Source of the DNA: an uncultured SAR86 cluster bacterium
GTDB taxonomy: Bacteria; Pseudomonadota; Gammaproteobacteria; Magnimaribacterales; AG-339-G14
NCBI GenBank assembly: GCA_902589965.1
Contig: CACIUX010000005.1
Span: forward strand, 7,929 to 71,928
Direction of reading: 5' to 3'
Length of the DNA stretch: 64,000 bases
Part shown: positions 302-64,000 of the stretch, piece after piece
How the letters are laid out: every line of letters starts with the position of its first letter
How positions within the stretch are numbered: position 1 is the first letter of the stretch
The notes under the pieces: model-generated
What the model saw: only the letters and a program-made list of their open reading frames with translations
What the model was told of the DNA's origin: nothing
The model's database searches: none
Made by a program: the position numbers and the translations under genes

Positions 302-313
302 GGAGCTAAAAAA

Positions 314-2815: not shown

Positions 2816-2846
2816 AAATTACTATGTTTTTAAGTAAACATATATA

Positions 2847-3674: not shown

Positions 3675-3677
3675 AAT

Positions 3678-5582: not shown

Positions 5583-5585
5583 ATT

Positions 5586-8176: not shown

Positions 8177-8189
8177 CGAGGAGTAAAAT

Positions 8190-11666: not shown

Positions 11667-12099
11667 CTATCTAAATTCCTTAACTCGACAACAACAAATA
11701 ATATTTATTTTGACGTTGTCTTTACTTCTTCTTATGGTTCTTAGTTTCTTTTTGAATTTTATTCAAAAGACAGCAAACAATCTTGAAATCGAAAGAAATA
11801 AAATACTCACAGAAGAAAGATTAATAAATAAAATTAATTTTTTCCCAGGGTTTGTCAATCAAGATAATGTTTCAATATCCTCCTTAATAACTAATACTTC
11901 TGGTGATTTTAAAATTAACATCGATAGAACTCAGGTCATAGACGAAGAGTCAATTATTGTCTGGATAAATGATGCAGATTTTATGAGACTTTATGACTGG
12001 CTTTTTTCAATTCAAGATCGAGTTTCTTTAGATAAAACTAGCCTTACTAAGTCTTCAGGCGGGAGAGTGTCTGCTCAATTAAATCTATCTAAAATCTAA
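11653..12099 (+). CDS. gspM: Type II secretion protein M
   Basis: N-terminal LT.QQQ then TM, VWINDADF..LYDWL motif; follows gspL. Confidence 0.82.
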   Translation: MKVFSYLNSLTRQQQIIFILTLSLLLLMVLSFFLNFIQKTANNLEIERNKILTEERLINKINFFPGFVNQDNVSISSLITNTSGDFKINIDRTQVIDEESIIVWINDADFMRLYDWLFSIQDRVSLDKTSLTKSSGGRVSAQLNLSKI

Positions 12100-45707: not shown

Positions 45708-45716
45708 TCTTTAAAT

Positions 45717-45751
45717 AAAAAAGCCTCCCTTATTATTGAAGGAGGCTTTTT
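45717..45751 (+). terminator. Intrinsic terminator
   Basis: AAAAAGCCTCC-loop-GGAGGCTTTTT after the TBDR stop. Confidence 0.9.
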
Positions 45752-45821
45752 ATATCTAAATAATTGATCAAATATGTTACAAAAACGTTTAATTTTGTCT
45801 ATTTTTACTATAAATTAACGC

Positions 45822-45895
45822 TAATACGTTTAAGAAAGGAGTCTTAAATAGTATTAACAAGGAAGTTATCAACTCAAAACACAAAGGGGAATGTT
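45822..45895 (+). promoter_or_regulatory. 5' leader with three GGA-loop hairpins (CsrA/RsmA-like sites)
   Basis: TTTAAGA-AAGGAG-TCTTAAA (45829-45848); TAAC-AAGGAA-GTTA (45855-45868); AACA-CAAAGGGGAA-TGTT over the SD (45878-45895). Confidence 0.6.
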
Positions 45896-48800
45896 ATGAG
45901 TATAAAAAAATTATTATCGCCATTATTGATATTGGCACTCATTTTCACTGGATATTCGATAGCGCAAGACAATGCTCTTGAAGAAGTAACCGTAACATCG
46001 CAAAGACAAGAACAAAGTCTTCAAGACGTTCCTTTAGCTGTGACAGCTTTTAATGCAGATGATTTGCTTGAACAGCAAATTGAGGAAGCTTCGGATCTTC
46101 AACTTGTGGTTCCTGGATTGACTTTTGCACCCACTGCTTTTTCTGGCGGTGGTGGATTTGATATTCGTGGAATTACTAATTTAGCCGTTGCAGCTTCTGC
46201 AGATGCTGGAGTTGCAATCCACATGAATGACTTAGCATTAGGTTCAACAACTTTGCAGGATGGAACATTCTTTGACATGCAGAGAATAGAGGTTATCAGA
46301 GGACCAGCAGGAACCTTATTTGGAAGAAATTCAGTTGGTGGCGCCATCAACATGATTACTGCAAAAGGGGACACGTCTGGTTATTACGGTAATGCAAGTA
46401 TCGATATTGCTGACTATAACGGACTGAAAACAACCTCAACTTTTAATATTCCATTAGACGATAAAGTGGCTTTGAGACTTGCCACATCTACTCTTAAAAG
46501 AGACGGTTATATGGAAAACATTTACTCTGTTCAAAAAGATCAAGATGTTGATGGAAGAAATCAAGTAGCTTATCGAGCTACTTTAACTTTTGAGCCAACT
46601 GACAATACTACAATCCATATTATCCATAACGCAGAAATTGAAGATTCAACCAGAACATTAGGTGGTAACGTATACTGTAAAAGAGATACATCTTTTGTAA
46701 CGGGTTGTACTCGTACTTCTGAGCGAGCATTTGAGTTAACCCACCCTATGGGAACTTACGTTGAAAACTTGATGGTTGCTATGGGAGTATTGGATTTTAC
46801 TACAACAACTGATATGTCTGGTGCTCCTCAAGGATTCAGACAAGTAAATACTCGTGGTAATTCTCTCTATCAAGTTGATCAATACACTACGCAACTTCTC
46901 ATAGAGCACAGCGTTGATGATATTGATATTTCAATAGGTGCTCACTCAAAAGATAGAACTTTCATGAGAATGTCTGCTTATGCCTCTCCTGAAATGCAAA
47001 CTTTAAGATTTAAAAATACTCCTGCCACCCCTGGTGGTTTGATCAATATGTCAGGGTACGGTCCAGGATGTGATTTAGACGCAGGAACTCTTGGTGCTTA
47101 CGGTGGTTGTGTCATGGATACAATAAATTATCCAACAGGCGGAGATAGACCAGAATCAGACGTTGATACAAAAGTACTTGAATTAAAAGTGAGTTCTTCA
47201 TTCGATGGAAATGTAAACTTCCTAGCCGGTTACACTTACTATGATAATGCTTCCATTACCTTATACGATGTATATGCAAGTGGATTGGATGTCTTAGCTC
47301 AAGCACCGCCAGCATTATTGGCGGGTCCTGCTGCTGCTCTAGGCGCACAACTTTATCCAAGTTTATTCAGAACAAATGATAAAGGAACTATTGAATCGCA
47401 AGCAGTTTTTGGAGAACTTTATTATGAGCCGAGAGAAGACTTAAAACTTACTTTTGGTCTTAGATATAATGAAGATGAAAAAACAAGCTTAAGTAGAATT
47501 GCATTTGTTAACGTTTTAGGTTTTTCTAAAGGTCGAGCTACTGACTTAGGAGTAAATCTTCTGACAGAAGGAGCCATACCAACTGCTGCTGCTTTCGAAG
47601 CTTTTGCTTGTGGAAACTTTGAGCAAGGATTTTGTCCCCTTTTAGGAAGTGTTCCTGATTATGGAGAAGCTTATATCGCAACTACAGGTCTGGATCCGTA
47701 TATGGAATTTAGTGCCATGACCGGAAGATTTGTCGTTGATTATTTTGTCGATGAAAACTCGTTGATTTATGTAAATTTATCTAAAGGTTTCAAAGGCGGA
47801 GGTTTTAACCCTGCTCTTGATCCCTTAATTTTCCCTAACACACCTCAAATATTCCCAGCCTCTGATCTTATATCGCTTGAATTTGGGTTTAAAACAGAGT
47901 TCCCAGAACAAGGCGTTCGTCTGAACGGAGCTGTCTATGCATATGATGCTGAAAATTATCACATCACAAAAATTATGAATAAAACCTCAATTAATGAAGG
48001 TATTGATGTTGATATTATGGGTCTAGAATTAGAGTTGTTATACGCTCCTCCTTCAGTCCCAGGCCTTGCTCTGAATGCTTCTTTAGCAATGACCGAGTCA
48101 ACAATTGCTGATGGTGTTTCGGCGCTTGATCCAGTACAACCGGATGGAGCATTTTCAGGACATCCAGACAGCAAAAACTGGCATTTAATGAAAGATGAAC
48201 TTTCAACCATGTTTATTATGAGAAAAGATGCATTGCAAGCTGTTTATGGAGCTTGGTTGCAAGAAACTCTTACAGGTGGGGCAGCTCAAACTGGATTGGA
48301 TGCTATTGAAGTTCTTACGGCTGGTGCCACAACTACAGCTGATTTAATGGCGGCATTAATACCTGCTGAGTTCCACGGAGATAGAACTTACGGCCAACCA
48401 ACACCTGTCAGTTATTTGGTTCCTGCCTTAGGTTTAAGTCCTGCTGAGGGTCATTTACCTTCTCTAGGTGTTCAAGCCGGTATGAGAACCATGGCTCAAT
48501 TAATGGGTTTTGATCCTGCAGCTGTTGTTTCTGAAGGTCTCGAAACAGATATCTCAGGAAATTCATTAGTTCACCCTGACTCATCAGCAAACATAGGTAT
48601 TTCTTATACAGCTCAAGCAGGAAGTGTGAACGTAACAACAAGACTAGATGTAGCGTATCAAGGTGCAAGGTATGTACGTATATTTAATCTCCCAGAGGAT
48701 CAAATTGATTCTTGGTTAGAATCAAATTTACAAATTACTGTTACACCTGCAAATGATGACAGTTGGTATGTACAATTTTACGGTCAGAACATTACCGATG

Positions 48801-48910
48801 AACTTAACGTTACCGGCATTGGCCTTGGTGATGCTTCAGTAGGCCAAACTAGAGGAGTTACTGTTAGAGATCCTCAAGTCTTTGGAATTAGAGTTGGTTA
48901 CAATTTCTAA
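45896..48910 (+). CDS. TonB-dependent receptor (1004 aa)
   Basis: LEEVTVTSQRQEQSLQDVP, RIEVIRGPAGTLFGRN, GFKGGGFN, C-terminal GYNF. Confidence 0.96.
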   Translation: MSIKKLLSPLLILALIFTGYSIAQDNALEEVTVTSQRQEQSLQDVPLAVTAFNADDLLEQQIEEASDLQLVVPGLTFAPTAFSGGGGFDIRGITNLAVAASADAGVAIHMNDLALGSTTLQDGTFFDMQRIEVIRGPAGTLFGRNSVGGAINMITAKGDTSGYYGNASIDIADYNGLKTTSTFNIPLDDKVALRLATSTLKRDGYMENIYSVQKDQDVDGRNQVAYRATLTFEPTDNTTIHIIHNAEIEDSTRTLGGNVYCKRDTSFVTGCTRTSERAFELTHPMGTYVENLMVAMGVLDFTTTTDMSGAPQGFRQVNTRGNSLYQVDQYTTQLLIEHSVDDIDISIGAHSKDRTFMRMSAYASPEMQTLRFKNTPATPGGLINMSGYGPGCDLDAGTLGAYGGCVMDTINYPTGGDRPESDVDTKVLELKVSSSFDGNVNFLAGYTYYDNASITLYDVYASGLDVLAQAPPALLAGPAAALGAQLYPSLFRTNDKGTIESQAVFGELYYEPREDLKLTFGLRYNEDEKTSLSRIAFVNVLGFSKGRATDLGVNLLTEGAIPTAAAFEAFACGNFEQGFCPLLGSVPDYGEAYIATTGLDPYMEFSAMTGRFVVDYFVDENSLIYVNLSKGFKGGGFNPALDPLIFPNTPQIFPASDLISLEFGFKTEFPEQGVRLNGAVYAYDAENYHITKIMNKTSINEGIDVDIMGLELELLYAPPSVPGLALNASLAMTESTIADGVSALDPVQPDGAFSGHPDSKNWHLMKDELSTMFIMRKDALQAVYGAWLQETLTGGAAQTGLDAIEVLTAGATTTADLMAALIPAEFHGDRTYGQPTPVSYLVPALGLSPAEGHLPSLGVQAGMRTMAQLMGFDPAAVVSEGLETDISGNSLVHPDSSANIGISYTAQAGSVNVTTRLDVAYQGARYVRIFNLPEDQIDSWLESNLQITVTPANDDSWYVQFYGQNITDELNVTGIGLGDASVGQTRGVTVRDPQVFGIRVGYNF

Positions 48911-50618
48911 TTTTAGAAAATATCTGCAAAAAACCCTGATTTTTATCGGGGTTTTTTGTATCTTATTTTCTTGTTCTTACGGACAAGACTCATCAATCAT
49001 CACTATTCAGCAAGGTAAATTAAAAGGCTTGGAGCATGATGATGGCACTATAAAATATTTTGGTATCCCTTATGCGAAAGCTCCAGTTGGCAATCTTCGT
49101 TGGAAGGAACCTTTGCCTCATGAAGGATGGGAGGGAACTCTTTTAGCAGAATCTCATGGTAAAGCATGCATGCAGCCACTTGAATTATTGACTCCTGATG
49201 GAAAACTGACTGGCAATAATGGTTTTTACGATCTTATTATAGAAAAGTCAGGCTTAGATATTCCATCTGATGAATCTCAAAATAATGCAGGATTTAATCG
49301 TTTTACATACGATGATATGTCCGAGGACTGTTTATTTCTAAACATTGTTGTTCCTAAAGGCGGCGCTGCTAACAAACCTGTAATGTTTTGGATCCATGGC
49401 GGAGCTTCAAGGTGGGGGTCTGGGCATGAAAGTAATTACACCAGCCAATATATTCCCACAGAGGGGGACGTCATCGTGGTGAGTATAAATTATCGACTGG
49501 GGGTTTTTGCCTGGTTGGCTCATCCAGAATTATCAAGAGAGTCAGAAAAAAACGTTTCTGGAAATTATGGAACTTTAGATCAAATAGCAGCTCTAAAGTG
49601 GGTTAAAGATAATATTGCAAATTTTGGTGGAGACCCAAACAACATAACCATTTTTGGTGAATCGGCTGGGGGACAAGCTGTGACGTCTTTGATGATAAGT
49701 CCATTATCGAAAGGATTGTTTCACAAAGCCATTGCTCAAAGTGGCACCGGATTACCGAATGTTTTAACTGATATCAGAGAAGATAAAGGGATATTAGTTT
49801 CCGCCGAGTCAAAAGGTATCAAGTTAGCTGAATATTTTTTAGGAGAAAATGCCAATATAAATGATTTAAGGGAATTGCCAGCCCTGGAAATTGTTTCCAT
49901 TGATGATTTCCAACTCGATCAAGACTTAATCATGATGACAAATCAAATTGTTGACGGATATGTTTTCCCTGAATCTATAAAAGATGCTTTTATAAATCAA
50001 AATGTCCACGATTTACCTTTTATGGTCGGTTTCAACGGAGATGAGGGGACAAGCCTATTTCCATTGATTATTGATCCAAAAACTTTCAGTTTATTCGGCG
50101 AGTTTTGGCCTGAAAGTCTTTGGGCTTTTGTTAACCCTGACCCATCATCCTTCCAAGGTCCAAAAGGAATGAGAGATTTTGCATTAAGCTTGGATGACAA
50201 TTATTACGATGCTGCAACGGATTTCTGGGGATTTTTATTTTTTGGTGCTCCCTCTTATTTTGTTGCAAAGCAACATTCATTATCTGGAAATCCGACTTAT
50301 CTTTATCAATTTGATAAGAAACCTAATATTCCTAATGATTATCTTGGCGCCACCCATGCTCTTGAACTTGGTTATCTATTTAATAAAGGCGGATTATTCG
50401 GCATAGAAGGATCTTTTGATGATTCTGATATTGAACTTGCTCAGAAAATGCGAGCGGATTGGATTAATTTTGCAAAAAATGGCTCTCCAAATATTGCCGA
50501 AAGATTTGATCATATCAGTTCGAATGCAAGAATTTATGACTCTTTCATTGAAGATAAGAAAATAGAGCACTCTGATTTTTATAAGTCCTACTCAAATTTT
50601 TGGGAAAATCTAAATTAG
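48882..50618 (+). CDS. Type-B carboxylesterase/lipase, probable lipoprotein (start uncertain: TTG 48882/48894 or CTG)
   Basis: GIPYA..P.G.LRW, SEDCLFLN, WIHGG, GESAGG, GATHALEL; LFSC lipobox-like motif. Confidence 0.92.
   Translation: MELELVTISNFRKYLQKTLIFIGVFCILFSCSYGQDSSIITIQQGKLKGLEHDDGTIKYFGIPYAKAPVGNLRWKEPLPHEGWEGTLLAESHGKACMQPLELLTPDGKLTGNNGFYDLIIEKSGLDIPSDESQNNAGFNRFTYDDMSEDCLFLNIVVPKGGAANKPVMFWIHGGASRWGSGHESNYTSQYIPTEGDVIVVSINYRLGVFAWLAHPELSRESEKNVSGNYGTLDQIAALKWVKDNIANFGGDPNNITIFGESAGGQAVTSLMISPLSKGLFHKAIAQSGTGLPNVLTDIREDKGILVSAESKGIKLAEYFLGENANINDLRELPALEIVSIDDFQLDQDLIMMTNQIVDGYVFPESIKDAFINQNVHDLPFMVGFNGDEGTSLFPLIIDPKTFSLFGEFWPESLWAFVNPDPSSFQGPKGMRDFALSLDDNYYDAATDFWGFLFFGAPSYFVAKQHSLSGNPTYLYQFDKKPNIPNDYLGATHALELGYLFNKGGLFGIEGSFDDSDIELAQKMRADWINFAKNGSPNIAERFDHISSNARIYDSFIEDKKIEHSDFYKSYSNFWENLN
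48926..48959 (+). terminator. Intrinsic terminator overlapping the esterase signal-peptide codons
   Basis: GCAAAAAACCCTGAT-TTTT-ATCGGGGTTTTTTGT, starting 16 nt after the TBDR stop. Confidence 0.8.
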
Positions 50619-50734
50619 ATTATTGACTTACTCAAAGAAATAATTTTAGAAAAATATAAATTCATTTAATTTTTCTCTTTTTTAGGATAGATTACTTTTT
50701 TAAATTTAACGATTTATTCTAAACAAGGAGCGTT

Positions 50735-53700
50735 ATGCATAAATTTTCAATTAATTTAATACTTTTCTATTTATTTTTCTCTTCACCCTTCGCAATTGTC
50801 CAAGATTCTGATGGATTAGAAGAAATTATTGTAACTGCGCAAAGACAAGAACAAAGTCTGCAAGACGTTCCTTTAGCAGTATCTTCATTCTCTGGAGATG
50901 ATCTATTGGAGCAACAGATCGAAGGAATTAATGACATGCAATTGTTTGTTCCTGGACTTAGGTTTGGTGGAAATATTGGTGAAGGTGGAGGAGATATTGA
51001 AATAAGGGGAATGGTGAATGGAGCAGTATCAGGTACAGCAGATTCAGCAGTTGGAGTTCATATTAATGACTTAGCTGTGGGAATAACACCTCTTGATACT
51101 GGCCAGCTTTTTGATATGGAAAGAGTTGAGATAATCAGAGGTCCTGCAGGAACTTTATATGGAAGAAATGCTATTGGTGGATCATTGAATATGATTACGG
51201 CAAAAGCAGATCCAACTTCTTTTTCTGGGAAAGTTAGTGTTGATCTTGGAGATTATGGAAGATTTGGCACTACTTCAGTTATAAATATTCCTCTTGATGA
51301 CAATGCAGCCTTTAGATTTGCTTCAACAACTTTGAAGCAAGATGGTCTAGTAGATAACATTTATAGCAAAGGACTCGATTATAACTTGGATAACAGAAAT
51401 CAAATGGGATACAGAGCTACCCTAAGTTTCGAACCTTCTGAAAAAACTACAATTCATATTGTTCATCAAGCTCAGATTGAAGATTCAAAAAGAACGCTTA
51501 CTTCAGGAACTTGGTGTGACAGAGATCCTTCCGCAGTCTTTGGTTGCACAATGCAAGCACCTGAAAATCAAAAATTTGAGATTGCGCATCCCATGTCCAC
51601 GTTAGTTGAACAACTTCTCATAGCACAAGGAGTTTTAAACTACACTCCGATAACTAGTCTGGCTGGAGCTCCTCAAGAATTATGGACGATGAACGTCAGA
51701 AACGAACCTGTATATACCGTTGACGAATATATTACTCAATTCATCGTAGACCATGATATTAATGACGAACTATCCTTATCTGTTGCTGCGAGCAGAAAAG
51801 ATAGAAAGTTTTATAGGTTAGAGGCTTACGAATCTCCAGAGTTAGATACATTAAGATTTAACGATACTCCTGTAACTCCTGGCGGTATTGGAACTATGTC
51901 TGCAAGTATCGATTCAAATTGCTCAGTCGAAGGCTACACTGCTGGTTTTTATGGTGGATGCATTTTGGATACACTGAATTATCCTACAGGAGCATTTAAC
52001 TATAGTTCTCTGGCTGATACGGATGCAGTTGAAATGAAACTAGTTTCTAGTTTTGATGGACCTCATAATTTTCTATTCGGTATGAATTATTTTAAAAATT
52101 ATCAAGATACGGATACAGATGTTGTGGCTTCTGGTCTAGATGCATTAACTGTGGCTCCACCTGCAGCAATGATAGGTACTCAAGCAGCTAGTCTTGGAGC
52201 ACAACTTTACGCACCATTTTTTAGAACAGCCAATATCGATGTAATAGAATCAACCGCCGTATTTGGTGAATATTACTTTGATGTGCGTGACGACTTAAAA
52301 TTAACCGTTGGCATGAGATACACAGATGACTTTAAAGAAGCAGGTCCAAGTAATCCGTCATTTAATATATTAGGTTACGCCAAAGGTAATATCACAGATG
52401 CTGCAGCTTCAGCTTGGACTGGTGGATTAGTTCCATCTGCCGCAGCCTGGGAAGCTTTATTTTGTCCTATAGGCGCCACTTTTTGCCCAGTTCCAGAATC
52501 CGCTATTCCTGGCAACAAAGTTCCCGCACCAGGAGAAGCTTACAGAGCAGCAGGGCTAGAAACCACTAGAGAAACTTCAGAATTTACTGGAAGGATTGTT
52601 TTAGACTACTTTATAAATCAAGATTCAATGATGTTTGTTTCCTTTTCCACTGGATTCAAAGGCGGTGGGATTAATCCTGGGTTTGATCCTACAAGTTTTG
52701 CTGGCGTTCCAACTGGATTTCCAAATTCAGAAGTAAATAATCTTGAAATAGGTTTCAAAAATGAATTTCCTGCTCAGGGAGTAAGACTTAATGTTTCTGC
52801 TTACTATAGTGATATTGAAAATTACCATATCACACAAATTAAAAATAGAACCTCAGTAAACGAGGGTATTGATGTTGAAATCATGGGTGCCGAGGCTGAT
52901 TTGCTTTACATGCCACCTGAAGTCCCTGGTTTTTCCCTGAATGCTTCTCTCAGCTACACATCTTCTGAGATCAATGATGGAGAAGGCTCTATAGATATGG
53001 TTAATAGAGATTTGCAATTAACAGGAGGAGTAGGCTCAACTGATTGGCACACTGTCAAAGATCAAGTTTCAGAAACCTTTATTATCAGAAAAACTGCTTT
53101 GCAGGCTATGTGGACCAGTTATTTGCAAGAGATTGCAACCTCTGGTGCAGCAGTGACTCCTGCAGATGGCATATCTGCCTTAAATCCGACTCTTGACGGT
53201 TTAACCCTCGCAAGTTTGGTGTTTTTTAATCCTGTAGAACATCACGGTGACAGAACTTTTGGAGCACCAACTCCAGTAAGTTATTGGAATCCATTAGCTG
53301 GTCAAAACCCTGCTGATGGTCATCTACCCTCAGTACTAAATAGAGCTTCAGGTCTTCATCAAATTCTAGCTCAGCTACATGGATTTGATCTAGTTCCTGG
53401 TTCTGATATCAGTGAAGGTTTAGTGAGCGATGTTTCAGGTAATTCTTTATTTCATCCCGAACTGCAAGCAAATCTTGGTATAGGTTACTTACAAGATATT
53501 GGAAATCTAAAAATTAATTATCGTCTGGATTATTCATATCAGGGAGAAAGATATTTAAGGGTATTTAATCTTCCAAGTGACGTCTTAGAGGCTTGGGATG
53601 AGTTAGGCGCCCAAATTACTCTATCTAGTTCAGATGATTCTTGGTTTGTTCAATTTTATGGACAAAACATAACTGACAACAATAGCTATTATTATAGAGA

Positions 53701-53788
53701 ACTTCAAAGTACCGCTGTAGGAAACTACCAAAGGATAATGGCTAGAGAAAGGGCTAGATATGGAATAAGGCTTGGTTATAATTTTTAA
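50735..53788 (+). CDS. TonB-dependent receptor (1017 aa), paralog of 45896-48910
   Basis: LEEIIVTAQRQEQSLQDVP, RGPAGTLYGRN, many blocks shared with the previous TBDR, C-terminal GYNF. Confidence 0.96.
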   Translation: MHKFSINLILFYLFFSSPFAIVQDSDGLEEIIVTAQRQEQSLQDVPLAVSSFSGDDLLEQQIEGINDMQLFVPGLRFGGNIGEGGGDIEIRGMVNGAVSGTADSAVGVHINDLAVGITPLDTGQLFDMERVEIIRGPAGTLYGRNAIGGSLNMITAKADPTSFSGKVSVDLGDYGRFGTTSVINIPLDDNAAFRFASTTLKQDGLVDNIYSKGLDYNLDNRNQMGYRATLSFEPSEKTTIHIVHQAQIEDSKRTLTSGTWCDRDPSAVFGCTMQAPENQKFEIAHPMSTLVEQLLIAQGVLNYTPITSLAGAPQELWTMNVRNEPVYTVDEYITQFIVDHDINDELSLSVAASRKDRKFYRLEAYESPELDTLRFNDTPVTPGGIGTMSASIDSNCSVEGYTAGFYGGCILDTLNYPTGAFNYSSLADTDAVEMKLVSSFDGPHNFLFGMNYFKNYQDTDTDVVASGLDALTVAPPAAMIGTQAASLGAQLYAPFFRTANIDVIESTAVFGEYYFDVRDDLKLTVGMRYTDDFKEAGPSNPSFNILGYAKGNITDAAASAWTGGLVPSAAAWEALFCPIGATFCPVPESAIPGNKVPAPGEAYRAAGLETTRETSEFTGRIVLDYFINQDSMMFVSFSTGFKGGGINPGFDPTSFAGVPTGFPNSEVNNLEIGFKNEFPAQGVRLNVSAYYSDIENYHITQIKNRTSVNEGIDVEIMGAEADLLYMPPEVPGFSLNASLSYTSSEINDGEGSIDMVNRDLQLTGGVGSTDWHTVKDQVSETFIIRKTALQAMWTSYLQEIATSGAAVTPADGISALNPTLDGLTLASLVFFNPVEHHGDRTFGAPTPVSYWNPLAGQNPADGHLPSVLNRASGLHQILAQLHGFDLVPGSDISEGLVSDVSGNSLFHPELQANLGIGYLQDIGNLKINYRLDYSYQGERYLRVFNLPSDVLEAWDELGAQITLSSSDDSWFVQFYGQNITDNNSYYYRELQSTAVGNYQRIMARERARYGIRLGYNF

Positions 53789-53796: not shown

Positions 53797-53828
53797 AAAA
53801 AAAGACCCTGCTTCGGCAGGGTTTTTTT
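53797..53828 (+). terminator. Intrinsic terminator with UUCG tetraloop
   Basis: AAAAAAAGACCCTGC-TTCG-GCAGGGTTTTTTT. Confidence 0.95.
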
Positions 53829-53875: not shown

Positions 53876-54889
53876 ATGATTAAACACATCAACAATATTG
53901 CTGGAATTTTAATTCTTCTTAATATTTTTGATCAGATTTTGTCGTCTAGCAAAATTATTCCTGAAAATATCTATTTTGATATATTTGTTATAGCTTCTTA
54001 TCTTTTTTTTGGTGCTGAATTTATTACAAGAATTATCATTGAAAGAAGATTCTCTTTCCTGTTAGTTTTCGATTTTATCGTTTTAGCAAATTATATTTTC
54101 TTTGGATTTTACGATTTAAGAATTTTAAGAATCTTTAGGGCTTATTCAATTTATAGCAATCATAAAATGTTACTTCCAACTAATACATTGTTGAGAACGG
54201 TGTATAACCAAAGGTTGGCGTTACTTGGTTCTCAAATAATGGTTTTTTCCGTTTTACTTATTTTTTCGACTTTAATTCACTTCATTGAAAGAGATATTAA
54301 TCCAGAGTATTTTGGTTCTATTCTCAATTCAATGTGGTTTGGAATTGCTACGCTAACCACAGTTGGTTATGGAGATGTAACTCCATCATCCCCATTAGGC
54401 CAAGTTCTTACTTCTTTAACTATGTTTCTAGGTATCGGAATGTTTGCTTTGCCTGCTGCAATCTTAGCCTCGGCTTATTATGAGGAAATCCAAAAAAGAA
54501 ACTTTCTCATAACAATGGAAACAATTTCTAGTATCCCATTATTCTCGATGTTGCCCATAGGGGCTTTAAGTAAAATTAACGATAAGTTAGTTGCTGAAAT
54601 TTACCCGGCTAAAAGAAAAATTATAGAAAAAGGTGATGAGGCAGATTGCATGTACATTATTGAGTTTGGATCTGTTCAAGTAGAAATAGAATCTCCTGTG
54701 ACTTTGGGACAGGGTGATTATTTTGGTGAAAAAGGAATTCTTTCTAAAGAACTTCGTAATGCATCTATAAGCTCAATAGAGGAAGTTAAATTACTTTCCC
54801 TGTCAAAAGACGATTTAGAAGAACTAATGGGAGAATATCCTCATCTTTTTGAAGAGCTTGAAAAAGTTAGTTTAGACAGAAAAGGTTAA
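53876..54889 (+). CDS. Cyclic-nucleotide-gated K+ channel (MloK1/SthK-like)
   Basis: Reduced S1-S4 with LRILRIFR, K+ filter TTVGYGD, cNMP domain with FGE...RNA. Confidence 0.93.
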   Translation: MIKHINNIAGILILLNIFDQILSSSKIIPENIYFDIFVIASYLFFGAEFITRIIIERRFSFLLVFDFIVLANYIFFGFYDLRILRIFRAYSIYSNHKMLLPTNTLLRTVYNQRLALLGSQIMVFSVLLIFSTLIHFIERDINPEYFGSILNSMWFGIATLTTVGYGDVTPSSPLGQVLTSLTMFLGIGMFALPAAILASAYYEEIQKRNFLITMETISSIPLFSMLPIGALSKINDKLVAEIYPAKRKIIEKGDEADCMYIIEFGSVQVEIESPVTLGQGDYFGEKGILSKELRNASISSIEEVKLLSLSKDDLEELMGEYPHLFEELEKVSLDRKG

Positions 54890-55638
54890 TTAAAAGAATA
54901 AGAAAACTTAGTACTAAGACCTTGATCATCTTCAACGGCATTAGTTATTGGATCCGAATCATATGCGATGTCATATTGAAGGCTGATACTAAATTTTTTA
55001 TTTACCAGAAAGTTAAAAGCCATAAGAAAACTTGCCTTGTAGTCACTAAAATCAGTGACTCCTGGTTGGTAATAAATCGTAGTATTAAAGTTAATATTTT
55101 CAGCAACTGCAAAATTATCGTGGAAATAAGCGGAAAGCCTTGTTGTGTTTGTTACAAAGTCGTCTAAATCAGTTTCTTCTTCATATATCACTCCAGCTCC
55201 AAATCTCATTTGATCATCTATAATCATTCTAAGACCAGTCCCAAATAAATTTCTTTCTCTAAAAAGCCTAAATGGATTTTTCGCTGACTGAATAAAGAAT
55301 TCTGTATTGTACTGATTGTAAGTTTCGAAAACTGATCTTATATGAATGAGTTGAGAAATATCCGTGACGTTTTGATTTATTTTCCTTTCAGATTTTCTCA
55401 AAATCATGAAGTTTTCAACGTCATCAAGGTTATAGTCAAACCTTAAATCAAAAGAATAGAAATCTCTGTCTCTGTTACCTCTGGAAGCATTTAAAGAAAA
55501 TCCAAGGCCAGCAAAAAATCCTTCCTTACCCTCATTTCTTAACTCTTCAATATTCACTATAGTCTGAGAAATAGCAAATGAGGGCAAGAGTAATGAAATA
55601 AAGAAGAATTTATTTAGTTGTTGCAACATACGCTCCAT
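54886..55638 (-). CDS. DUF481-like outer-membrane beta-barrel
   Basis: Signal peptide, IVNIE.LR N-terminus, GN motif, YYQP, alternating beta pattern, terminal YSF. Confidence 0.8.
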   Translation of the reverse strand: MERMLQQLNKFFFISLLLPSFAISQTIVNIEELRNEGKEGFFAGLGFSLNASRGNRDRDFYSFDLRFDYNLDDVENFMILRKSERKINQNVTDISQLIHIRSVFETYNQYNTEFFIQSAKNPFRLFRERNLFGTGLRMIIDDQMRFGAGVIYEEETDLDDFVTNTTRLSAYFHDNFAVAENINFNTTIYYQPGVTDFSDYKASFLMAFNFLVNKKFSISLQYDIAYDSDPITNAVEDDQGLSTKFSYSFN

Positions 55639-57793
55639 TCCAATTCGGATCAGTTAAATTAAGTTTCATATCCTTAATCCTGTCTTTAAAAATAGCGTAG
55701 TATAAATCAAACTCCACAACTTGTTCTTCCCATTTTTTAATAAAGTTTAATGCTAGATCCCATCGTTGGTTTCTATAATTCTCTAGAAATTTATTATGAT
55801 CATTTTGAAATTCAATTAATTCTTCATCATCTAATGAGAATTTATCAAAAGAAGTATAAATTTTAACCGGCTCAGTTTTCCCTTTAACTTGAATCAAGTC
55901 TAGTTCAAAAAGATTAGATTTTGACTTGAGGGTATTCACAGTTTCTTGTCCAAGAATTCTTTGAAAACCATAAGTTCCTGATTGACCTTCTAATCTTGAC
56001 GCCAAATTAACTGGATCTCCTAAGACGGTATAATCAAATCTTTTTTCTGATCCCATATTCCCAACAATACATTCACCAGTATTAATACCAATTCCGATTT
56101 TAAGTTCCATTCCTTTTTCTTTTTGGAATTCAATATTAAAGTTTTCTAACGCCTTTTCCATATCAAAAGATGCTTTTAGAGCTAAATCCGTATGATTTTC
56201 TTGATCTGTAGGTGCATTCCAGAATGCCATGATGCAATCACCCATATATTTATCAATTGTTCCTTCATTATCCAAAATTTCATTAGACAAAACTGTAAGA
56301 AGTTTATTTATCAGTTCAGTTAATTCTTCTGGATTAGATTTGTAACTTTCTGATATAGCTGTGAACCCTCGTATGTCAGAAAAAAGAAAAGTCATAGTTT
56401 TCTTCTCTCCTCCCAATTTAAGTGATTCACTTGATTCCGCAAGTCTCGAAACCATTTCTGGAGCAAGATATTGAGAAAAAGCTGTTCTAACTTTACTACG
56501 TTCCAACTCAGTAAAAAGAAAATTAAAAAATGTGATTATCAAGTAACTCAATAAGCATATTATTAATGGAGAAATTGGATCTATTAAAAAATCTAATTGA
56601 TTGAAACCATAGAAAGAACCATAGAGACTACTTAAATTTGCTACTAAGAATGTAATTAATCCCCCGATAGGTCCAAAATATTGAATGACCAAGCAAATCA
56701 AGATGGAAAAAAGTAAACCAAATAAAAATTCTGCTCCTTCCATCCAATCTGGTCTTACTAAAAAATCTCCATTTATAATTTGTTGAATGCCTTGAGCTAT
56801 GATTGTTACGCCAGGTATATCTCGCTCTAAAGAGGTATTTCTTATGTCGAGCAGTCCAGACGCGCTAGTTCCTATAAGAACAATTTTTCCAGCAAAGAAA
56901 TCTTTATCAAAAGAATTATTTATGACTTTAGCCGCAGGAATGATATTCAAGTTTTCCTTATAAGTAGAATATAACCAAAGGTAACCATTTGAATTGGTTG
57001 GAATAATTACGTTTCCTAATTTTATGTTATTAACTCCAGTACTCTCACCAAACGCTAACTCTCCTGATGCATTTGATGACTTGATTTGATAAGTACTTGC
57101 TCCGATAGCAACCCTAAGGGTCTCTAGCATCAAGGAAGGTACTATCTGTCCATTCACTACTTCAAATGTGGGGAGGCTTCTAACAATACTTGAATCACCC
57201 CCAATGCTCATCGACCCTACGCCCGCTGCAGAATCTACTAGAGCGGGTAAGTTGTTTTGCATTCCTGTGTAATTAGGAAGAAATTCTTTTGGTGAATCTC
57301 CCTGAATTATTAGACCGTATTTAGGTTTTACTTCTAAGGTTCTTAATTTATTATTTGGCGCACTTCCTAAGACAACAGTGGAGTGTGACTCCATAGATTC
57401 AGCAAATATTTTGTCATTTGGCTTTATCTTTTTTAACTCTCTAATTAGTTCAGTATTTGTTGAATATTGTTCAGTTAGAACATCACTTCCGGTTCTATCT
57501 CTTTCTGCAAAAACGATATCAAATGATGTAGTTAAAGCTCGCTCTGTTTTACTCACTAATTGAGAAAGTAGATCTCTTGACCAAGGCCATTGACCTAAAT
57601 TATTGAGAGACTCATCATCAATATCAATTATTACAACTGGATCATCTTCTAAAGGTTCTCTTGGACTTATTTGTTGTAGAGTATCAAAAGCAAATAATCT
57701 TAAATCATTAAAAATATTTAATGGATTTGTCAGTGGAATTAGACCAATTAAAATGGCTAAAGGGAGAAGTATTTTTTTTTGAATGTTCTTCAT
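55610..57793 (-). CDS. CHASE2-domain class III adenylate cyclase
   Basis: IDIDDESL..LGQWPWSR (CHASE2), 3 TM, FSDIRGFT, DKYMGDCIMAFW, DYTVLGDPVNLASRLEG (K and T ATP-specifying residues). Confidence 0.95.
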   Translation of the reverse strand: MKNIQKKILLPLAILIGLIPLTNPLNIFNDLRLFAFDTLQQISPREPLEDDPVVIIDIDDESLNNLGQWPWSRDLLSQLVSKTERALTTSFDIVFAERDRTGSDVLTEQYSTNTELIRELKKIKPNDKIFAESMESHSTVVLGSAPNNKLRTLEVKPKYGLIIQGDSPKEFLPNYTGMQNNLPALVDSAAGVGSMSIGGDSSIVRSLPTFEVVNGQIVPSLMLETLRVAIGASTYQIKSSNASGELAFGESTGVNNIKLGNVIIPTNSNGYLWLYSTYKENLNIIPAAKVINNSFDKDFFAGKIVLIGTSASGLLDIRNTSLERDIPGVTIIAQGIQQIINGDFLVRPDWMEGAEFLFGLLFSILICLVIQYFGPIGGLITFLVANLSSLYGSFYGFNQLDFLIDPISPLIICLLSYLIITFFNFLFTELERSKVRTAFSQYLAPEMVSRLAESSESLKLGGEKKTMTFLFSDIRGFTAISESYKSNPEELTELINKLLTVLSNEILDNEGTIDKYMGDCIMAFWNAPTDQENHTDLALKASFDMEKALENFNIEFQKEKGMELKIGIGINTGECIVGNMGSEKRFDYTVLGDPVNLASRLEGQSGTYGFQRILGQETVNTLKSKSNLFELDLIQVKGKTEPVKIYTSFDKFSLDDEELIEFQNDHNKFLENYRNQRWDLALNFIKKWEEQVVEFDLYYAIFKDRIKDMKLNLTDPNWNGAYVATTK

Positions 57794-57830
57794 CTTTTTT
57801 TGATAAAACCTTTATAATTGACGCCTTGTC

Positions 57831-59153
57831 ATGTTTGTCAGATATATTTTATTACTATTTATCTTTAGTTTTAGTATTTTTGTTTTAGCGCAAAACGTAC
57901 CTCCGACTATATCGGATCCTGAGCAATTAGAAACGATTAGAAAAGAAAGGCAAGCTATTTTTAATGAATTGATAGAGGATCCAACTAATCAGGGAAATTT
58001 ATTTAAATATGCCAATCTATCAATTATTTTAGGAGATTTAGAAGCGGCTATTGGGGTTTTTGAACAAATGCTTATTTATGATCCTACTTTGGCAAGAATT
58101 AGGCTAGAACTTGGAGTACTTTACTTTAGGCTAGAAGCTTATGCTCCAGCAAAATTATATCTTGAGAGCGTTAAAGACTACGACCCTCCTGAAGAAGTGA
58201 TTACGAAGGTTGAATCTTTTTTAGCTGCCATTGAAGAGCAAGAAAAGCCTGTAACGGTAAATCAACTAATGACTTTTGGTTTTGCCAGTTCTTCTAACGC
58301 AAATGCTGGTATAGATGCCGACATTATCGAGATAGCAGGTTTTCCTCTTGAGGTATCTCCAGATTCAAAACCTCAATCGGATTCAAAATTTTCTGTCAAT
58401 TACAATTTGTCTTTAACTCAGAATTTGAATAATCCCCGTGGTGATGCAATTAATTATTTCCTGGCAGTTGCTACCACTTATCAATCTAGGTTTACGCAAT
58501 TTGACCAAAGAAGTTTCGTATTTGGTTTAAATAGTCGTTTAGATGTAGAAGAGGGCAGATTTGGATTATTGAAAAATCCATCGGTCACACCAAGCTTCAC
58601 AAGAATTCAAGTTTACTTATCTGGAGAGCCTCTGCTTGAATCTAATGCTTTCAGCGTAAGTCATTCTGGATCCTTAACAAATGGTTCTGTTTTTGAATAC
58701 GGTTTTAACGTAGATAAAAGGAATTTTATAGGCTTAGATGCAAAAAGCGGTTACAGATACGGAACTTTTGTGAATAACACTTTTAATTTACCAAATAATA
58801 ACTCTAGTTGGACTATGAATATTTTCTCTGATAAATATGAAGCCAACCAAAAATTTGAATCCTTTAGACAATGGGGTTTTGGTTTTAATTACAGAATGCC
58901 TCTTCCAGATGCATGGGTTATGGCTGCTAATTATGATTTCTCTACTAAAAATTACCTTGCACCAAACGGACCACTTGGAACAAGAAAAGATATTAACGAA
59001 TCATCAGATTTAACCTTTTCAAGACTTTATATAAATTGTTTATCTATGAATATTTTTATTAAACCTTTTGATAATAGAAGCAGCATTGATATCTTCTCCA
59101 GAAGTAACACCGATGTAGGTGTAAATCTTTCTTATCTTTGCTTAAATAACTAA
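57831..59153 (+). CDS. TPR + outer-membrane beta-barrel protein (DUF560/Slam-like)
   Basis: Signal peptide, TPR pair (AAIGVFEQML..DP...RIRLELGVLYFRL..Y), SSNANAG strand start, beta-rich C-terminus. Confidence 0.75.
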   Translation: MFVRYILLLFIFSFSIFVLAQNVPPTISDPEQLETIRKERQAIFNELIEDPTNQGNLFKYANLSIILGDLEAAIGVFEQMLIYDPTLARIRLELGVLYFRLEAYAPAKLYLESVKDYDPPEEVITKVESFLAAIEEQEKPVTVNQLMTFGFASSSNANAGIDADIIEIAGFPLEVSPDSKPQSDSKFSVNYNLSLTQNLNNPRGDAINYFLAVATTYQSRFTQFDQRSFVFGLNSRLDVEEGRFGLLKNPSVTPSFTRIQVYLSGEPLLESNAFSVSHSGSLTNGSVFEYGFNVDKRNFIGLDAKSGYRYGTFVNNTFNLPNNNSSWTMNIFSDKYEANQKFESFRQWGFGFNYRMPLPDAWVMAANYDFSTKNYLAPNGPLGTRKDINESSDLTFSRLYINCLSMNIFIKPFDNRSSIDIFSRSNTDVGVNLSYLCLNN

Positions 59154-59185
59154 CCTTAAATTTTACTTGAGTATATAATCCGCAA

Positions 59186-59911
59186 ATGAATCAGATAGTC
59201 CAATTTTTTCTAAAAATAAGAAACAGTAGTTTTTTTAATGGAATTGTAATTTTTGTAATCATTGGCTCTGCTATTTATGCAGGAGTTAGCTCTTATGACC
59301 TTGCGGAAGAATACGTTGGACTGCTGAATTTTCTTGATACCGCCATAACAGTTTTTTTCCTAGTAGAGATTATTATAAGAATAGTCGCAGAAAGATCACT
59401 GATTAAATTTTTTAAAGGTGGTTGGAACGTCTTTGATTTCATCATCGTTACGGTCAGTTTAATTCCAATCACGGGAGGAGAGACAGCATTCGTTGCAAGA
59501 TTACTCAGAATTGTCAGGGTATTAAGAATTATCACCGTAGTGCCTGCATTGAAGAAAATTGTCGATGCGTTGTTTGAAACGCTTCCAAGAGTTGGTTTTG
59601 TGGCTCTTCTAATGTTCATTTTCATATATATATGGGCTGCTATAGGAACTTTAGTTTTTGGAACAACAGATCCAGAACATTGGGGTAATATTGGTCTTGC
59701 TATGCTTACCCTTGCACAAGTTGCTACATACGATGACTGGGCTGCAGTTATGAAAGATATAATTGAAGTTTTTCCTTGGGTATGGATTTACTTTATTAGT
59801 TTCATTCTTCTTAATGCCGTAATCATGTTGAATATGGTCATTGGTATCATTGTTGATGTTATGTCTAAGAAATCTAGCAGCGGCCAATTAAGTGCAGATG
59901 AGAATCAATAA
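59186..59911 (+). CDS. BacNav-family voltage-gated cation channel with TYDDW filter
   Basis: GWNVFDFIIV (S3), RLLRIVRVLR (S4), pore VATYDDWAAV, S6 LNMVIGIIVD.M. Confidence 0.93.
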   Translation: MNQIVQFFLKIRNSSFFNGIVIFVIIGSAIYAGVSSYDLAEEYVGLLNFLDTAITVFFLVEIIIRIVAERSLIKFFKGGWNVFDFIIVTVSLIPITGGETAFVARLLRIVRVLRIITVVPALKKIVDALFETLPRVGFVALLMFIFIYIWAAIGTLVFGTTDPEHWGNIGLAMLTLAQVATYDDWAAVMKDIIEVFPWVWIYFISFILLNAVIMLNMVIGIIVDVMSKKSSSGQLSADENQ

Positions 59912-60140
59912 TTTTCTGATCCTTTTTCTATTTTTATCTTTATCTTCATGCACCTATCAAAAGGTAATTAAGAACTCTATGTATGATTTAGATGAGTTTG
60001 ATGCATGTTATTTAGATCATAAATCCGTCCTAGACTCCGATAAACAGAAGTATCTAAACATGCTCATAGAGTTAAGAAATTATAATTGTTCTCGTTATTA
60101 TGAACTTTTTATGAGAGGGACAATTATTCAGGGCAATTAA
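59898..60140 (+). CDS. Small hypothetical lipoprotein
   Basis: MRINNFLILFLFLSLSSC lipobox; overlaps the channel stop; two further Cys. Confidence 0.6.
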   Translation: MRINNFLILFLFLSLSSCTYQKVIKNSMYDLDEFDACYLDHKSVLDSDKQKYLNMLIELRNYNCSRYYELFMRGTIIQGN

Positions 60141-61909
60141 AACCAAAATATCAGGAGCAATGGTGTTGAAATGGCTATTATGAGTAATTCTAATGGTAGA
60201 CCTAATTTCCAGTAATCTCCAAATTTATAATTACCTGGTCCCATTACCAAAGTGTTACATTGATGTCCGATAGGAGATAAAAAAGCACAGCTTGCACCTA
60301 TTGCAACACACATCAAAAATGGTTCAGAAGGATGACCTAACTGATTTGCAATTGTGACTGATATAGGTCCCATAATAACTGCAGTCGCTGCATTATTAAT
60401 GACATCAGATAGACACATTGTGGCTACCATCAAAATAACAAGGGTGCCAACTAGACCAAATTGAATAGATTGAGTCGCTATTACGGTTGCTAATATATTT
60501 GTAAGACCACTGTCATATAGTGCATCGCCTATAGGAATCATAGCTCCAAGCAATACAATAACAGGCCATTCAATATGACGATAAAGCATATTTGGTTTTA
60601 GTAGTTTAGACGCAACAAATGCTAAAACGCATAGTAAAAATGCTATGACGACATTTAAAAAATTTGTGATAACCAAAAGTAAACTAAAAGAAAATAACCC
60701 TAATGAAAGTAAAACTTTAGAATCATCCTTTATTACATCTAACTCTCTTTGCCAAAGAGGCATCAAACCAAGATCTTGCATTTTATCACTGGTATCTTTT
60801 TGTTCTTCTCTAGTAGCAATCAACAACACATCTCCAGCCTTGAAATGTTCGTTTGAAAGGCTTCCTTGAAAATTTGTACCTTTCCTCCACAACCCAAGAA
60901 CAGCCATCTGTCTCCCAACCATATTTGAAAAATAGCTTATAGTTCTACCTATTAATCTTGACCCTGGAGAAATCATGGTTTCAATTTCACCAAAGCTTCC
61001 TGAATCAAGATCTTTAATTTCGGTTCTGAGAGAAAGACCATACTTATCTTGTAGTCCTGATACTTCCTCTGGATTTATTTTCAAAAGTAGAATTTGAGAT
61101 TCTTTTAATTCCTCAAAATTACTTAAAATTTCCCTAGCATCAGATGTTTCATTTACTGAACCAATGAGTACTGTGTCAGAACCTAGTTCCTTCCTGAATT
61201 CTTGAGTTTTTTTACCTATAAGATCGCTATCTTTATCAATCACAAGTTCAACTAAATATTCATTAATATCAACTAAAGAAGATGAATCACTGTCACCAGA
61301 TCTATTTTTAACAAGAATGAAACCAAGTAATGCGATAAAAATTACGCCTCCGATACTCACAGGCAACCCTGCATAGGCAAAATCAAAAAATTCGAACCCT
61401 TGATCGGAATATTGGTCCCTAAATTCGGAAATAATAATATTTGGAGGCGTTCCAATTTTTGTATTCATACCCCCAAGAATTGATGCGAAGGCAAGAGGCA
61501 TTAAAAATTTAGAAGGGGACCAGCCCATTTTCTGACATATACCCAAAGTTACAGGTAATAACATCGCCATAGCACCAATGTTATTCATAAAAGAAGATAG
61601 TATGACTGCAATACCCATCAATATGACTAAGAACTGAAATTCACTATTAGCAATTTTCTGTAATAGATTGCCAATTTTCCCTATCAATCCTGATGCCTCT
61701 AGGCCTTTACTAATCAATAAAACAAGCGCAACTGTTATAACTGCGGGATGTCCAAACCCTACAAATGCTTCTTTAGCTGGAACAAAACCAAGAACCACTA
61801 AAACTGCAAGACTTGTTAATGCTACTGCATCGTATCGAAATCTGCCCCAGATAAACATAACAACCATAACCAAGAGTACGGCTGAAAGGATGATTTGATT
61901 GATATCCAT
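60137..61909 (-). CDS. SLC13/CitMHS-family permease with TrkA-C (RCK-C) domains
   Basis: SSFMNNIGA, IGTPPNII, two RCK-C repeats, SCAFLSPIGHQCN.LVMGPG.YKFGDY. Confidence 0.93.
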   Translation of the reverse strand: MDINQIILSAVLLVMVVMFIWGRFRYDAVALTSLAVLVVLGFVPAKEAFVGFGHPAVITVALVLLISKGLEASGLIGKIGNLLQKIANSEFQFLVILMGIAVILSSFMNNIGAMAMLLPVTLGICQKMGWSPSKFLMPLAFASILGGMNTKIGTPPNIIISEFRDQYSDQGFEFFDFAYAGLPVSIGGVIFIALLGFILVKNRSGDSDSSSLVDINEYLVELVIDKDSDLIGKKTQEFRKELGSDTVLIGSVNETSDAREILSNFEELKESQILLLKINPEEVSGLQDKYGLSLRTEIKDLDSGSFGEIETMISPGSRLIGRTISYFSNMVGRQMAVLGLWRKGTNFQGSLSNEHFKAGDVLLIATREEQKDTSDKMQDLGLMPLWQRELDVIKDDSKVLLSLGLFSFSLLLVITNFLNVVIAFLLCVLAFVASKLLKPNMLYRHIEWPVIVLLGAMIPIGDALYDSGLTNILATVIATQSIQFGLVGTLVILMVATMCLSDVINNAATAVIMGPISVTIANQLGHPSEPFLMCVAIGASCAFLSPIGHQCNTLVMGPGNYKFGDYWKLGLPLELLIIAISTPLLLIFWF

Positions 61910-62136: not shown

Positions 62137-62613
62137 ATGAAGATAATAAACATGAAAAAATTTAACAAAGTATTGATCCTTCCTTTGTTAGTCTTTGTTT
62201 TAGCAAACTGTGCTGGAACAAATGTCACAACTTATTCATCTGCATCAATTATGCTTGATGACTTTATAGAACAGAATGGCGGTAAAGGTGCAGTAAATGA
62301 TGAAACGTTGCATTATCCTTTAGACATTCAAACTTTGTCATGTTCTGAGATGCAAGCTAACAGAATAAGAATCTCTAATTTAATCAATAATTTATCTGAA
62401 AAAGTAGTAGAAAACGCAAATAGAAGTACTAGTTACTCCACATATGGATTAACAAAGCATGATCCCTTGGTTGGAACTAGTTTTATTGGAATCAGCTCTG
62501 TAGGCTTAAATCCTGAAGTTACTGAATACAGGAAACTAAAATTAGTGTTAGAAGAACTTAACACTACTTCAATCCTCAAGTGTACTCCACCTGAGGTAAT
62601 GAGAACTCCGTAA
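62137..62613 (+). CDS. Hypothetical lipoprotein
   Basis: MKKFNKVLILPLLVFVLANC lipobox; LSC..C pair. Confidence 0.7.
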   Translation: MKIINMKKFNKVLILPLLVFVLANCAGTNVTTYSSASIMLDDFIEQNGGKGAVNDETLHYPLDIQTLSCSEMQANRIRISNLINNLSEKVVENANRSTSYSTYGLTKHDPLVGTSFIGISSVGLNPEVTEYRKLKLVLEELNTTSILKCTPPEVMRTP

Positions 62614-63617: not shown

Positions 63618-64000
63618 TTATCTTTTCAACCAGGCCTTAATTGGTGAACCATATGATATGTTTACTACTTCTCTCATACCTTTAACTTTTTTTAAGAATT
63701 TAGCTTGCGCATCTGATTGGGATTGTGCCATTTGATTCTTTGTTAGAGATGCAAAATCACTTCCACCTATATAGATGAAATGAGTGAATTCTGTAGATCC
63801 ATAAATAACAGCATTTAAACCATAGGAACTAGTAAGTTCATTCTCATTTGAATTAGCTAATTCGATAAATTCTTCCAGATAATCTCCTGCTTTTCCAGAT
63901 TCAACTTTAAGATCAAATCTCATAAAAGCCCTATCTTTTGTCCAATCTCCTACCTCTAAAGCCTGAAAGGTAACAAATTCTGAAACGGGAGTTGCTACAG
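63618..64000 (-). CDS. Partial hypothetical protein (5' end outside the window)
   Basis: The frame of the 63618-63923 ORF stays open to the window edge (VATPVSEFVTFQALEVGDWTKDRAFM...). Confidence 0.7.
   Translation of the reverse strand, partial: VATPVSEFVTFQALEVGDWTKDRAFMRFDLKVESGKAGDYLEEFIELANSNENELTSSYGLNAVIYGSTEFTHFIYIGGSDFASLTKNQMAQSQSDAQAKFLKKVKGMREVVNISYGSPIKAWLKR

Follow-up and report, generated by a model that had tools for sequence, protein, structure and literature searches.

The question raised by the locus described here is whether a CHASE2 adenylate cyclase and a K+ channel with a cyclic nucleotide monophosphate (cNMP) binding domain, encoded side by side in a marine bacterium, form one signalling pathway, and which of the genes around them belong to it. 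The locus (53876..61909) lies in a 64,000-nt window, the whole stretch of DNA that was analysed, from contig CACIUX010000005.1 of an uncultured SAR86 cluster bacterium (GCA_902589965.1, here G000; a 1.12 Mb assembly, 86% complete, with ~35% G+C). A preliminary description had listed the K+ channel, a DUF481 barrel gene overlapping that of the cyclase, a divergent TPR protein, a voltage-gated (Nav-type) channel with an S4 segment, a small lipoprotein and a permease with an RCK-C domain. It had proposed that a periplasmic signal acts through cyclic AMP (cAMP), K+ flux and a change of voltage on the entry of Ca2+ or Na+. The analysis favours, with reasonable but not high confidence, a shorter envelope-to-ion-flux pathway that would run from the TPR barrel and a giant partner protein through the CHASE2 cyclase and cAMP to the K+ channel. 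Within it the link from cyclase to channel is judged distinctly probable from the genomic pattern, and the input through the barrel and the giant protein is evenly poised.

The list of genes proved correct. All seven open reading frames (ORFs) are intact at the positions given in Table 1; Pfam matches over cut-off are found for the K+ channel, DUF481, the CHASE2 cyclase, the second channel and the permease, and the divergent gene has TPR matches. No cassette gene matched NCBIfam over cut-off. Measured against two congeners, all seven ORFs are under purifying selection, with ratios of non-synonymous to synonymous substitution rates of 0.02-0.07 for the six large genes and of 0.07 and 0.22 for the 82-aa ORF (the comparison of DUF481 with G002 was saturated and gave no value).

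The association of cyclase and channel was followed through 154 genomes of the order, each at least 80% complete. A class III cyclase is present in 34 of these; that of G144 is an unrelated cyclase-TPR protein and was excluded, leaving 33 CHASE2 cyclase genomes. The K+ channel gene lies on the same contig within 3 kb of the cyclase gene in 32 of the 33, and its product is the sole cNMP-domain match of those genomes, so that the clustering is not the coincidence that the preliminary description had allowed for. In the exception, G074, the cyclase contig is 2,250 bp long, and the channel was not found. Conversely, the cyclase is found in 32 of 33 channel genomes, and in the remaining one (G146) the channel runs off a 2,623-bp contig. 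A strong match to the TPR barrel occurs in all 33 cyclase genomes. The FecR head of the giant protein occurs in 28 of them and, among the 120 genomes that lack both core genes, in one only (G014), whose contig starts within the barrel gene at an assembly gap. These counts omit 11 weak barrel matches (E 1e-3 to 1e-6, TPR proteins of ~660 aa) and five cNMP matches other than the channel; the latter lie in genomes without the CHASE2 cyclase, and the four that were scanned are CRP/FNR-family or ABC proteins.

The cassette is distributed over six of the 21 genera and three of the four families of the order. Gene order in families f2 and f3 is permease, K+ channel, (mscS), DUF481, cyclase, (tetR), TPR barrel, giant and Nav-type channel. 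The outer flanks vary by lineage and the core is constant.

The K+ channel contains six transmembrane helices (6TM), a GYG filter and a C-terminal cyclic-nucleotide-binding domain (CNBD) directly after S6. Its closest match in the PDB is MloK1 (E 4e-44), with an ungapped alignment over residues 105-337. The binding-cassette residues G284, E285, R294 and A296 and the S4 arginines R82, R85 and R88 are invariant in 37 of 37 orthologues. The channel is the sole PF00027 match in G000, and a custom profile built from channel and CRP-like domains likewise matched nothing else in that genome. CRP, suggested beforehand as an alternative target of cAMP, was not found in the 32 linked-pair genomes, in each of which the channel is the sole PF00027 match; cAMP receptors outside PF00027 were not searched for. 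From family knowledge the channel would be expected to bind cAMP, and it is the likely cAMP effector.

The cyclase retains D473, K515, D519, D587, N596 and R600 in 33 of 33 sequences; we take these to be the two metal-binding aspartates, the lysine and aspartate that specify adenine (K515 and D587) and the asparagine and arginine of the transition state. The adenine specifiers, read with what is known of the family, indicate that the product should be cAMP. The protein is the sole PF00211 match in G000, and its CHASE2 sensor is strongly conserved (71% mean column identity). DUF481 is probably cotranscribed with the cyclase, as their genes overlap. A TetR gene stands between cyclase and barrel in many relatives (L175:12321-12950, with equivalents in g14, g17 and g10); it is not in that slot in g1, g3 and several others.

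The channel, cyclase, barrel and giant genes are inherited and deleted as one unit. Four genomes of g17 (G090, G098, G099 and G100) retain the permease, mscS and the Nav-type gene and have lost the K+ channel on one side of mscS and the block of DUF481, cyclase, barrel and giant on the other. G140 similarly retains mscS and DUF481 with both flanking blocks gone. Losses on either side of a retained gene need two deletions, and they speak more strongly than anything else for a mutual dependence of channel and cyclase. Elsewhere the junctions can be read directly. After tauD, the sequence of G159 and G160 matches the spacer between tauD and the channel in G043 up to a break, beyond which it continues with the final ~29 codons of the giant gene; the Nav-type gene is undamaged. 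G046 has a different junction, and there the deletion extends into the Nav-type gene. The two kinds of junction and the two MscS clades point to one or two loss events in g17, and about five to seven separate losses are defensible overall. No barrel or FecR match was found elsewhere in the genomes with core deletions. DUF481 is usually lost with the core; it is kept in G140, and in G038 beside another Nav type. Linkage in 32 of 33 genomes, the sole cNMP domain, the invariant residues and the repeated co-loss together lend genomic support to the part of the original proposal that runs from cyclase through cAMP to K+ channel.

The TPR protein (440 aa) is predicted by AlphaFold2 to form six helices and 14 strands, with a predicted local distance difference test (pLDDT) score of 85. 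Its Atlas neighbours include SlipAM/DUF560 clusters at 0.99, and a relative that scores 131 bits on a custom profile scores 36.4 bits on SlipAM (cut-off 22). Foldseek returned generic barrels (BcsC, CymA, OmpG), with no Slam entry among the matches listed. The giant protein, 2,000-2,700 aa in length, consists of a signal-peptide-like start, a FecR head (PF04773, 28.8 bits with a cut-off of 24), an acidic stalk and cadherin repeats. A model of the C-terminal part, built on the sequence of a congener, shows an eight-stranded barrel with pLDDT mostly 80-95; the top Foldseek matches of this barrel are NHBA and TbpB (E 1e-5 to 1e-3), and Pfam gave no match for it. The two models would fit a secretor of the type XI secretion system (T11SS) and its cargo, the giant being the presumed cargo by virtue of the NHBA/TbpB-like barrel, and FecR-headed giants are likely to represent a new class of T11SS cargo. 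Such proteins often occur as tandem pairs with a conserved head and a variable body and barrel (G000 C8; L065, L066, L056-L060, L033). The earlier remark that FecR is missing applies to the window and to the 86%-complete assembly; it does not apply to the locus, for relatives carry the FecR-headed giant gene and the C-terminal 1,300+ residues of the G000 giant open contig C8 (positions 1-4034). As this contig begins inside the gene, the FecR head probably falls in an assembly gap.

In the proposed mechanism the Slam-like barrel would export the giant protein or hold it at the surface, and a periplasmic cue would tune the CHASE2 cyclase. The FecR head or the TPRs may contact CHASE2, and the cue may be contact or binding at the cadherin-repeat stalk. 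The K+ channel, which is the one cAMP-type receptor that was found in the cassette genomes, would be gated by the cAMP produced. At textbook values of 10 mM K+ outside and about 300 mM inside, E_K would be near -87 mV and the resting potential more negative; the expected output would then be K+ influx, partial depolarisation and a change of turgor, with no transcriptional step. TrkH is present in G000 and no flagellin was found there, so that neither basic K+ uptake nor motility is an obvious purpose of the cassette.

The same association was sought outside the order. A search with the channel alignment gave 65 loci, 19 close and 46 distant, some of which, by their titles, may duplicate genomes of the order sample. 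Thirteen of the close loci contain the cyclase, one contig ends first, and five belong to Rhodobacteraceae and have none. Three loci titled Woeseiaceae are rearranged, in the order DUF481, mscS, channel, barrel, cyclase. Ten small genomes of the Woeseiaceae group, for which completeness is not given, include three with the channel and a cyclase of CHASE2 size ~3 kb apart, the channel again being the sole cNMP domain; the other seven have no cNMP match, and one of them has another cyclase. Trees (quick and FastTree) were built, and in the quick trees the Woeseiaceae-group proteins and the Rhodobacteraceae channels nest among sequences of the order, which suggests that the Woeseiaceae-group cassette and the Rhodobacteraceae channels were acquired by transfer. 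The streamlined Rhodobacteraceae loci L070-L074 hold channels of this clade without the cassette; in L073 a gene for a cyclase-TPR protein lies 1.3 kb upstream. Among metagenome contigs with close cyclases the channel is present in eight of 13, and the other five contigs end first.

The 67 distant CHASE2 cyclases have as neighbours FecR in 17 cases, a TPR-barrel in seven, another cNMP protein in ten and a GYG channel in none. Eight of the ten cNMP neighbours were scanned: two are CRP-like, three consist of the cNMP domain only, and there is one fusion each of cNMP with HlyD, MscS and DASS. The varied neighbours indicate that the front end is widespread and that its effector slot is exchangeable, with the K+ channel filling the slot in this clade. 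The fusion loci (L254:12940-14415, L269:8502-10547, L252:2821-4545) are cases in which cAMP-controlled transport recurs with this cyclase family.

Several observations weigh against the envelope-to-ion-flux pathway. The genomes counted are kin and incomplete, and the counts, which are descriptive and carry no statistical test, overstate their independence; the search for other receptors, moreover, covered PF00027. The C-helix arginine equivalent to MloK1 R348 (R335 here) is present in G000 and is kept in only 29 of 37 channel orthologues. The five Rhodobacteraceae orthologues (60-63%) come from genomes that hold no CHASE2 cyclase, either near the channel or at another place, although all five carry other class III cyclases, and none of the 46 distant MloK1-like loci has a CHASE2 cyclase as neighbour. 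On the input side, the barrel of G000 has no direct SlipAM Pfam match, and in g1 and g3 the giant gene lies apart from the cyclase, having moved elsewhere in g1 and together with the Nav-type gene in g3. The FecR-domain/TPR proteins SMc02177 and SMb20495 of S. meliloti are dispensable for signal perception according to the available part of PMC5498481, which weakens the giant protein as input. No CpdA-like phosphodiesterase was recognised among the three metallophosphoesterases of G000. These look like ApaH, LpxH and YfcE.

The last of these points bears on a different account of the same genes, in which the cyclase merely keeps a high-affinity channel loaded with cAMP as a cofactor, giving a K+ conductance that is constant or only slowly adjusted, in place of a triggered signal. 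The very tight binding of cAMP by MloK1 is in keeping with such a tonic supply, and the co-loss of cyclase and channel is explained equally well by it. It leaves unexplained the strong conservation of the CHASE2 sensor and the co-loss of barrel and giant, it would provide K+ uptake that TrkH already provides, and we give it a small chance of being right. That cyclase and channel have no functional link at all, an adhesin-export locus and an ion-transport neighbourhood having joined once and then been deleted as a block, appears quite improbable. Similarly congruent trees for seven genes (r 0.77-0.97) are what vertical descent predicts, the losses in g10 and G151 are single contiguous deletions, and the Rhodobacteraceae channel exists without the CHASE2 cyclase; yet such hitch-hiking sits badly with deletions that flank a surviving mscS on either side (g17 and G140), with a linkage that survives rearrangement into another order between flanks that are not conserved, and with the residence of a sole cyclase and a sole cNMP domain in the same genomes. 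Tree congruence was also considered as proof of co-evolution and was set aside as uninformative, since control genes score equally high.

The remaining alternative is the full excitability circuit of the preliminary description, in which cAMP opens the K+ channel and the shift in voltage then opens the TYDDW channel, letting in Ca2+ or Na+. The Nav-type channel is a real and stable neighbour that does not need cAMP. Its best single-domain PDB match is 4dxw_A (E 5e-61), which we take to be NavRh; the four S4 arginines (R105, R108, R111 and R114 in G000) and the T-x-D-D-W filter motif are invariant in 41 of 41 orthologues. Strong matches occur in 50 of the 154 genomes; 28 of these belong to the 33 with the cyclase, and 22 do not. 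The 28 cyclase genomes yielded 24 loci for examination, and in every one the gene follows the barrel or the giant gene, sometimes separated from it by a single small gene; in 15 of the 28 genomes its distance from the cyclase is no more than 18 kb. The G046 deletion, which cut the Nav-type gene as well, also speaks for the circuit, as does the Ca2+ selectivity conferred on BacNavs by TLDDW(S/A)D filters in the portion of PMC7041947 available. Against this, the same source describes NavPp, which has one aspartate more than CavMr and passes Na+ better, so that filter charge does not predict selectivity.

Of the 22 matching genomes without the cyclase, 20 were read: G014 falls in an assembly gap, G046 is truncated, six have other filters, and in 12 the TxDDW channel is intact although both cyclase and K+ channel are missing (G040, G090, G098, G099, G100, G134, G139, G140, G141, G151, G159 and G160). 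The Nav-type gene also lies 156-170 kb from the cyclase in g3 (G017 and G071), the trees of MscS and the permease agree with that of the K+ channel at least as well as its own does (r 0.87), and an obvious output is wanting in a genome without recognisable flagellin. Its persistence in the 12 core-less genomes and its distance in g3 leave the excitability step unsupported, and entry of Ca2+ or Na+ as a required step is not upheld; the full circuit is unlikely. A bolder variant for a CRP-less, non-flagellated cell with a 1.2-Mb genome, a transcription-free and sensory-neuron-like chain from contact at the giant protein through cAMP, K+ channel and depolarisation to a natural TxDDW Ca2+ channel, is a long shot too. 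The TYDDW channel, MscS, DUF481 and the DASS permease constitute an older ion-transport neighbourhood that outlasts loss of the core, the permease being an older neighbour that is kept when the core goes. The natural T-Y/F-D-D-W filter of the G000 channel and its 41 orthologues resembles that of the engineered CavAb. Other genera of the order have MSSW, LSSW, VSGW and LEGW filters, the last matching the CavMr motif. A TATAAT at 59174-59179 ends 6 nt upstream of the Nav-type ATG and hints at a leaderless promoter of its own.

Table 1. Coordinates of the cassette features in the window.
Feature	Position	Strand	Basis or remark
Terminator-like hairpin, 7 bp stem, A/T runs on both sides	53805..53822		Between TonB-receptor array and cassette
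MloK1-type 6TM K+ channel, Ion_trans + cNMP_binding, filter TVGYGD	53876..54889	+	Pfam
DUF481 outer-membrane barrel	54886..55638	-	Pfam; 29-bp overlap with cyclase
CHASE2 + Guanylate_cyc class III adenylate cyclase	55610..57793	-	Pfam
37-bp divergent gap with TATAAT	57794..57830		TetR gene fills the slot in many relatives
TPR + predicted 14-strand barrel, Slam/T11SS-like	57831..59153	+	AlphaFold2 model, Atlas neighbours
BacNav/Cav-type voltage-gated channel, filter TYDDWAA	59186..59911	+	Pfam Ion_trans
Small predicted lipoprotein, 82 aa, lipobox-like LSSC, no family	59892..60140	+	Seen only in genus g1
DASS/SLC13-type permease, CitMHS/Na_sulph_symp + TrkA_C (RCK-C)	60137..61909	-	Pfam

The small lipoprotein was rejected as a component of the cassette because of its restriction to one genus. 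The link to the TonB-receptor array upstream, also drawn in the preliminary description, does not hold, as the hairpin separates the two and the array flanks the cassette only in g1 among the mapped loci. The scan places the terminator-like hairpin on the minus strand, and a T-run also follows on the plus strand. A promoter scan found 27 candidates against 36 expected (shuffled mean), which is not above chance. Twenty RNA runs from 17 studies hold 0.20-0.31 of the words, and contigs from four runs cover parts of cassette genes; such contigs cannot show transcription, strand or level and were not counted.

Other features of the surroundings may be recorded here. A gene for a lipoprotein-like product of 158 aa, with no family assigned, turns up repeatedly near the cassette (62137-62613 in the window; L140, L173, L179, L181, L076); in g14 it stands between the giant gene and the Nav-type gene, in G000 it is also found close to mscS (C1 ~149984), and it has high contig depth in the RNA runs. 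In g3 and g14 a small DUF1508 gene separates the permease from the K+ channel (L034:5645-5974; L077, L173, L180). The receptor array (42597-53788) consists of three paralogous TonB-dependent receptors of ~1,000 aa, with an interposed carboxylesterase that varies among congeners. A type II secretion cluster (2847-12812; GspC, D, E, F, G, J and K by Pfam) follows a TonB-receptor-like gene and holds the only secretin match of G000. At the far end (63618-64000, and C5 beyond) begins an expanded family of secreted proteins of ~235 aa with no Pfam family, the copy number of which varies among congeners.

The combination of genes in the cassette is undescribed in the literature searched, in which coverage of subscription papers was poor, and nothing relevant was found there on SAR86 with adenylate cyclase or cyclic AMP. 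Bacterial cyclic-nucleotide-gated channels are standard structural models whose native signal source and purpose are poorly known; their native roles were stated to be unknown in 2005 (PMC2234077, available in part), and no later answer was found in the literature searched. A genome in which one cyclase adjoins the one cNMP receptor, together with relatives that have naturally lost both, makes the physiological role of the channel directly testable. The proposal would further mean that a CHASE2/barrel/FecR front end can drive an ion channel without a transcription factor in abundant streamlined marine bacteria, and the giant proteins with FecR heads are a likely further class of T11SS cargo.

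The individual parts can be compared with known systems. MloK1 (mll3241 of Mesorhizobium loti; PDB 2zd9 and others) shares with the K+ channel the 6TM + CNBD arrangement, the spacing from pore to C-terminus, the GYG and the FGE...R motif; it has TTGYGD in place of TVGYGD and RSA in place of RNA in the binding cassette, and the channel here differs further in its three invariant S4 arginines and its fixed cyclase partner. The Nav-type channel resembles BacNav proteins (4dxw, CavAb with TLDDW, CavMr), which are single-domain 6TM voltage-gated channels with four S4 arginines, and is set apart by a natural T-Y/F-D-D-W filter with two aspartates (PMC7041947). Barrel and giant recall the Slam/T11SS (DUF560) secretors with TbpBBD cargo, where a protein with TPRs and a 14-strand barrel is encoded next to a Sec-exported protein with an eight-strand C-terminal barrel, such C-terminal barrels unifying T11SS cargo (PMC12282271); here the cargo would be 2,000-2,700 aa long, with a FecR head and cadherin repeats, and tied to a cyclase (PMC8406197, PMC12282271). 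The main texts of these two papers mention no cyclase, CHASE or FecR; their supplements have no CHASE2 entry and list 201 co-occurrences of FecR with cluster 1 secretors.

The closest parallel to the pathway as a whole is the NsrA-CyaK/CyaD1/CyaD2-Clr system of S. meliloti, in which an outer-membrane barrel signals to a CHASE2 class III cyclase and the regulon also holds FecR-domain and TPR proteins (available portions of PMC7529298, PMC13001267 and PMC5498481). The barrel, which in NsrA comprises residues 600-1200, is here the smaller Slam-like protein, adjoining the cyclase and co-inherited with it in 33 of 33 genomes, and the FecR domain forms the head of a giant protein with cadherin repeats, unlike in the NsrA pathway. 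The output differs as well: S. meliloti employs the CRP-family protein Clr, whereas here no CRP was found and the sole cNMP domain is that of the K+ channel. The cassette may thus represent an NsrA/CyaK-like front end with an MloK1-type channel in place of the CRP-family regulator.

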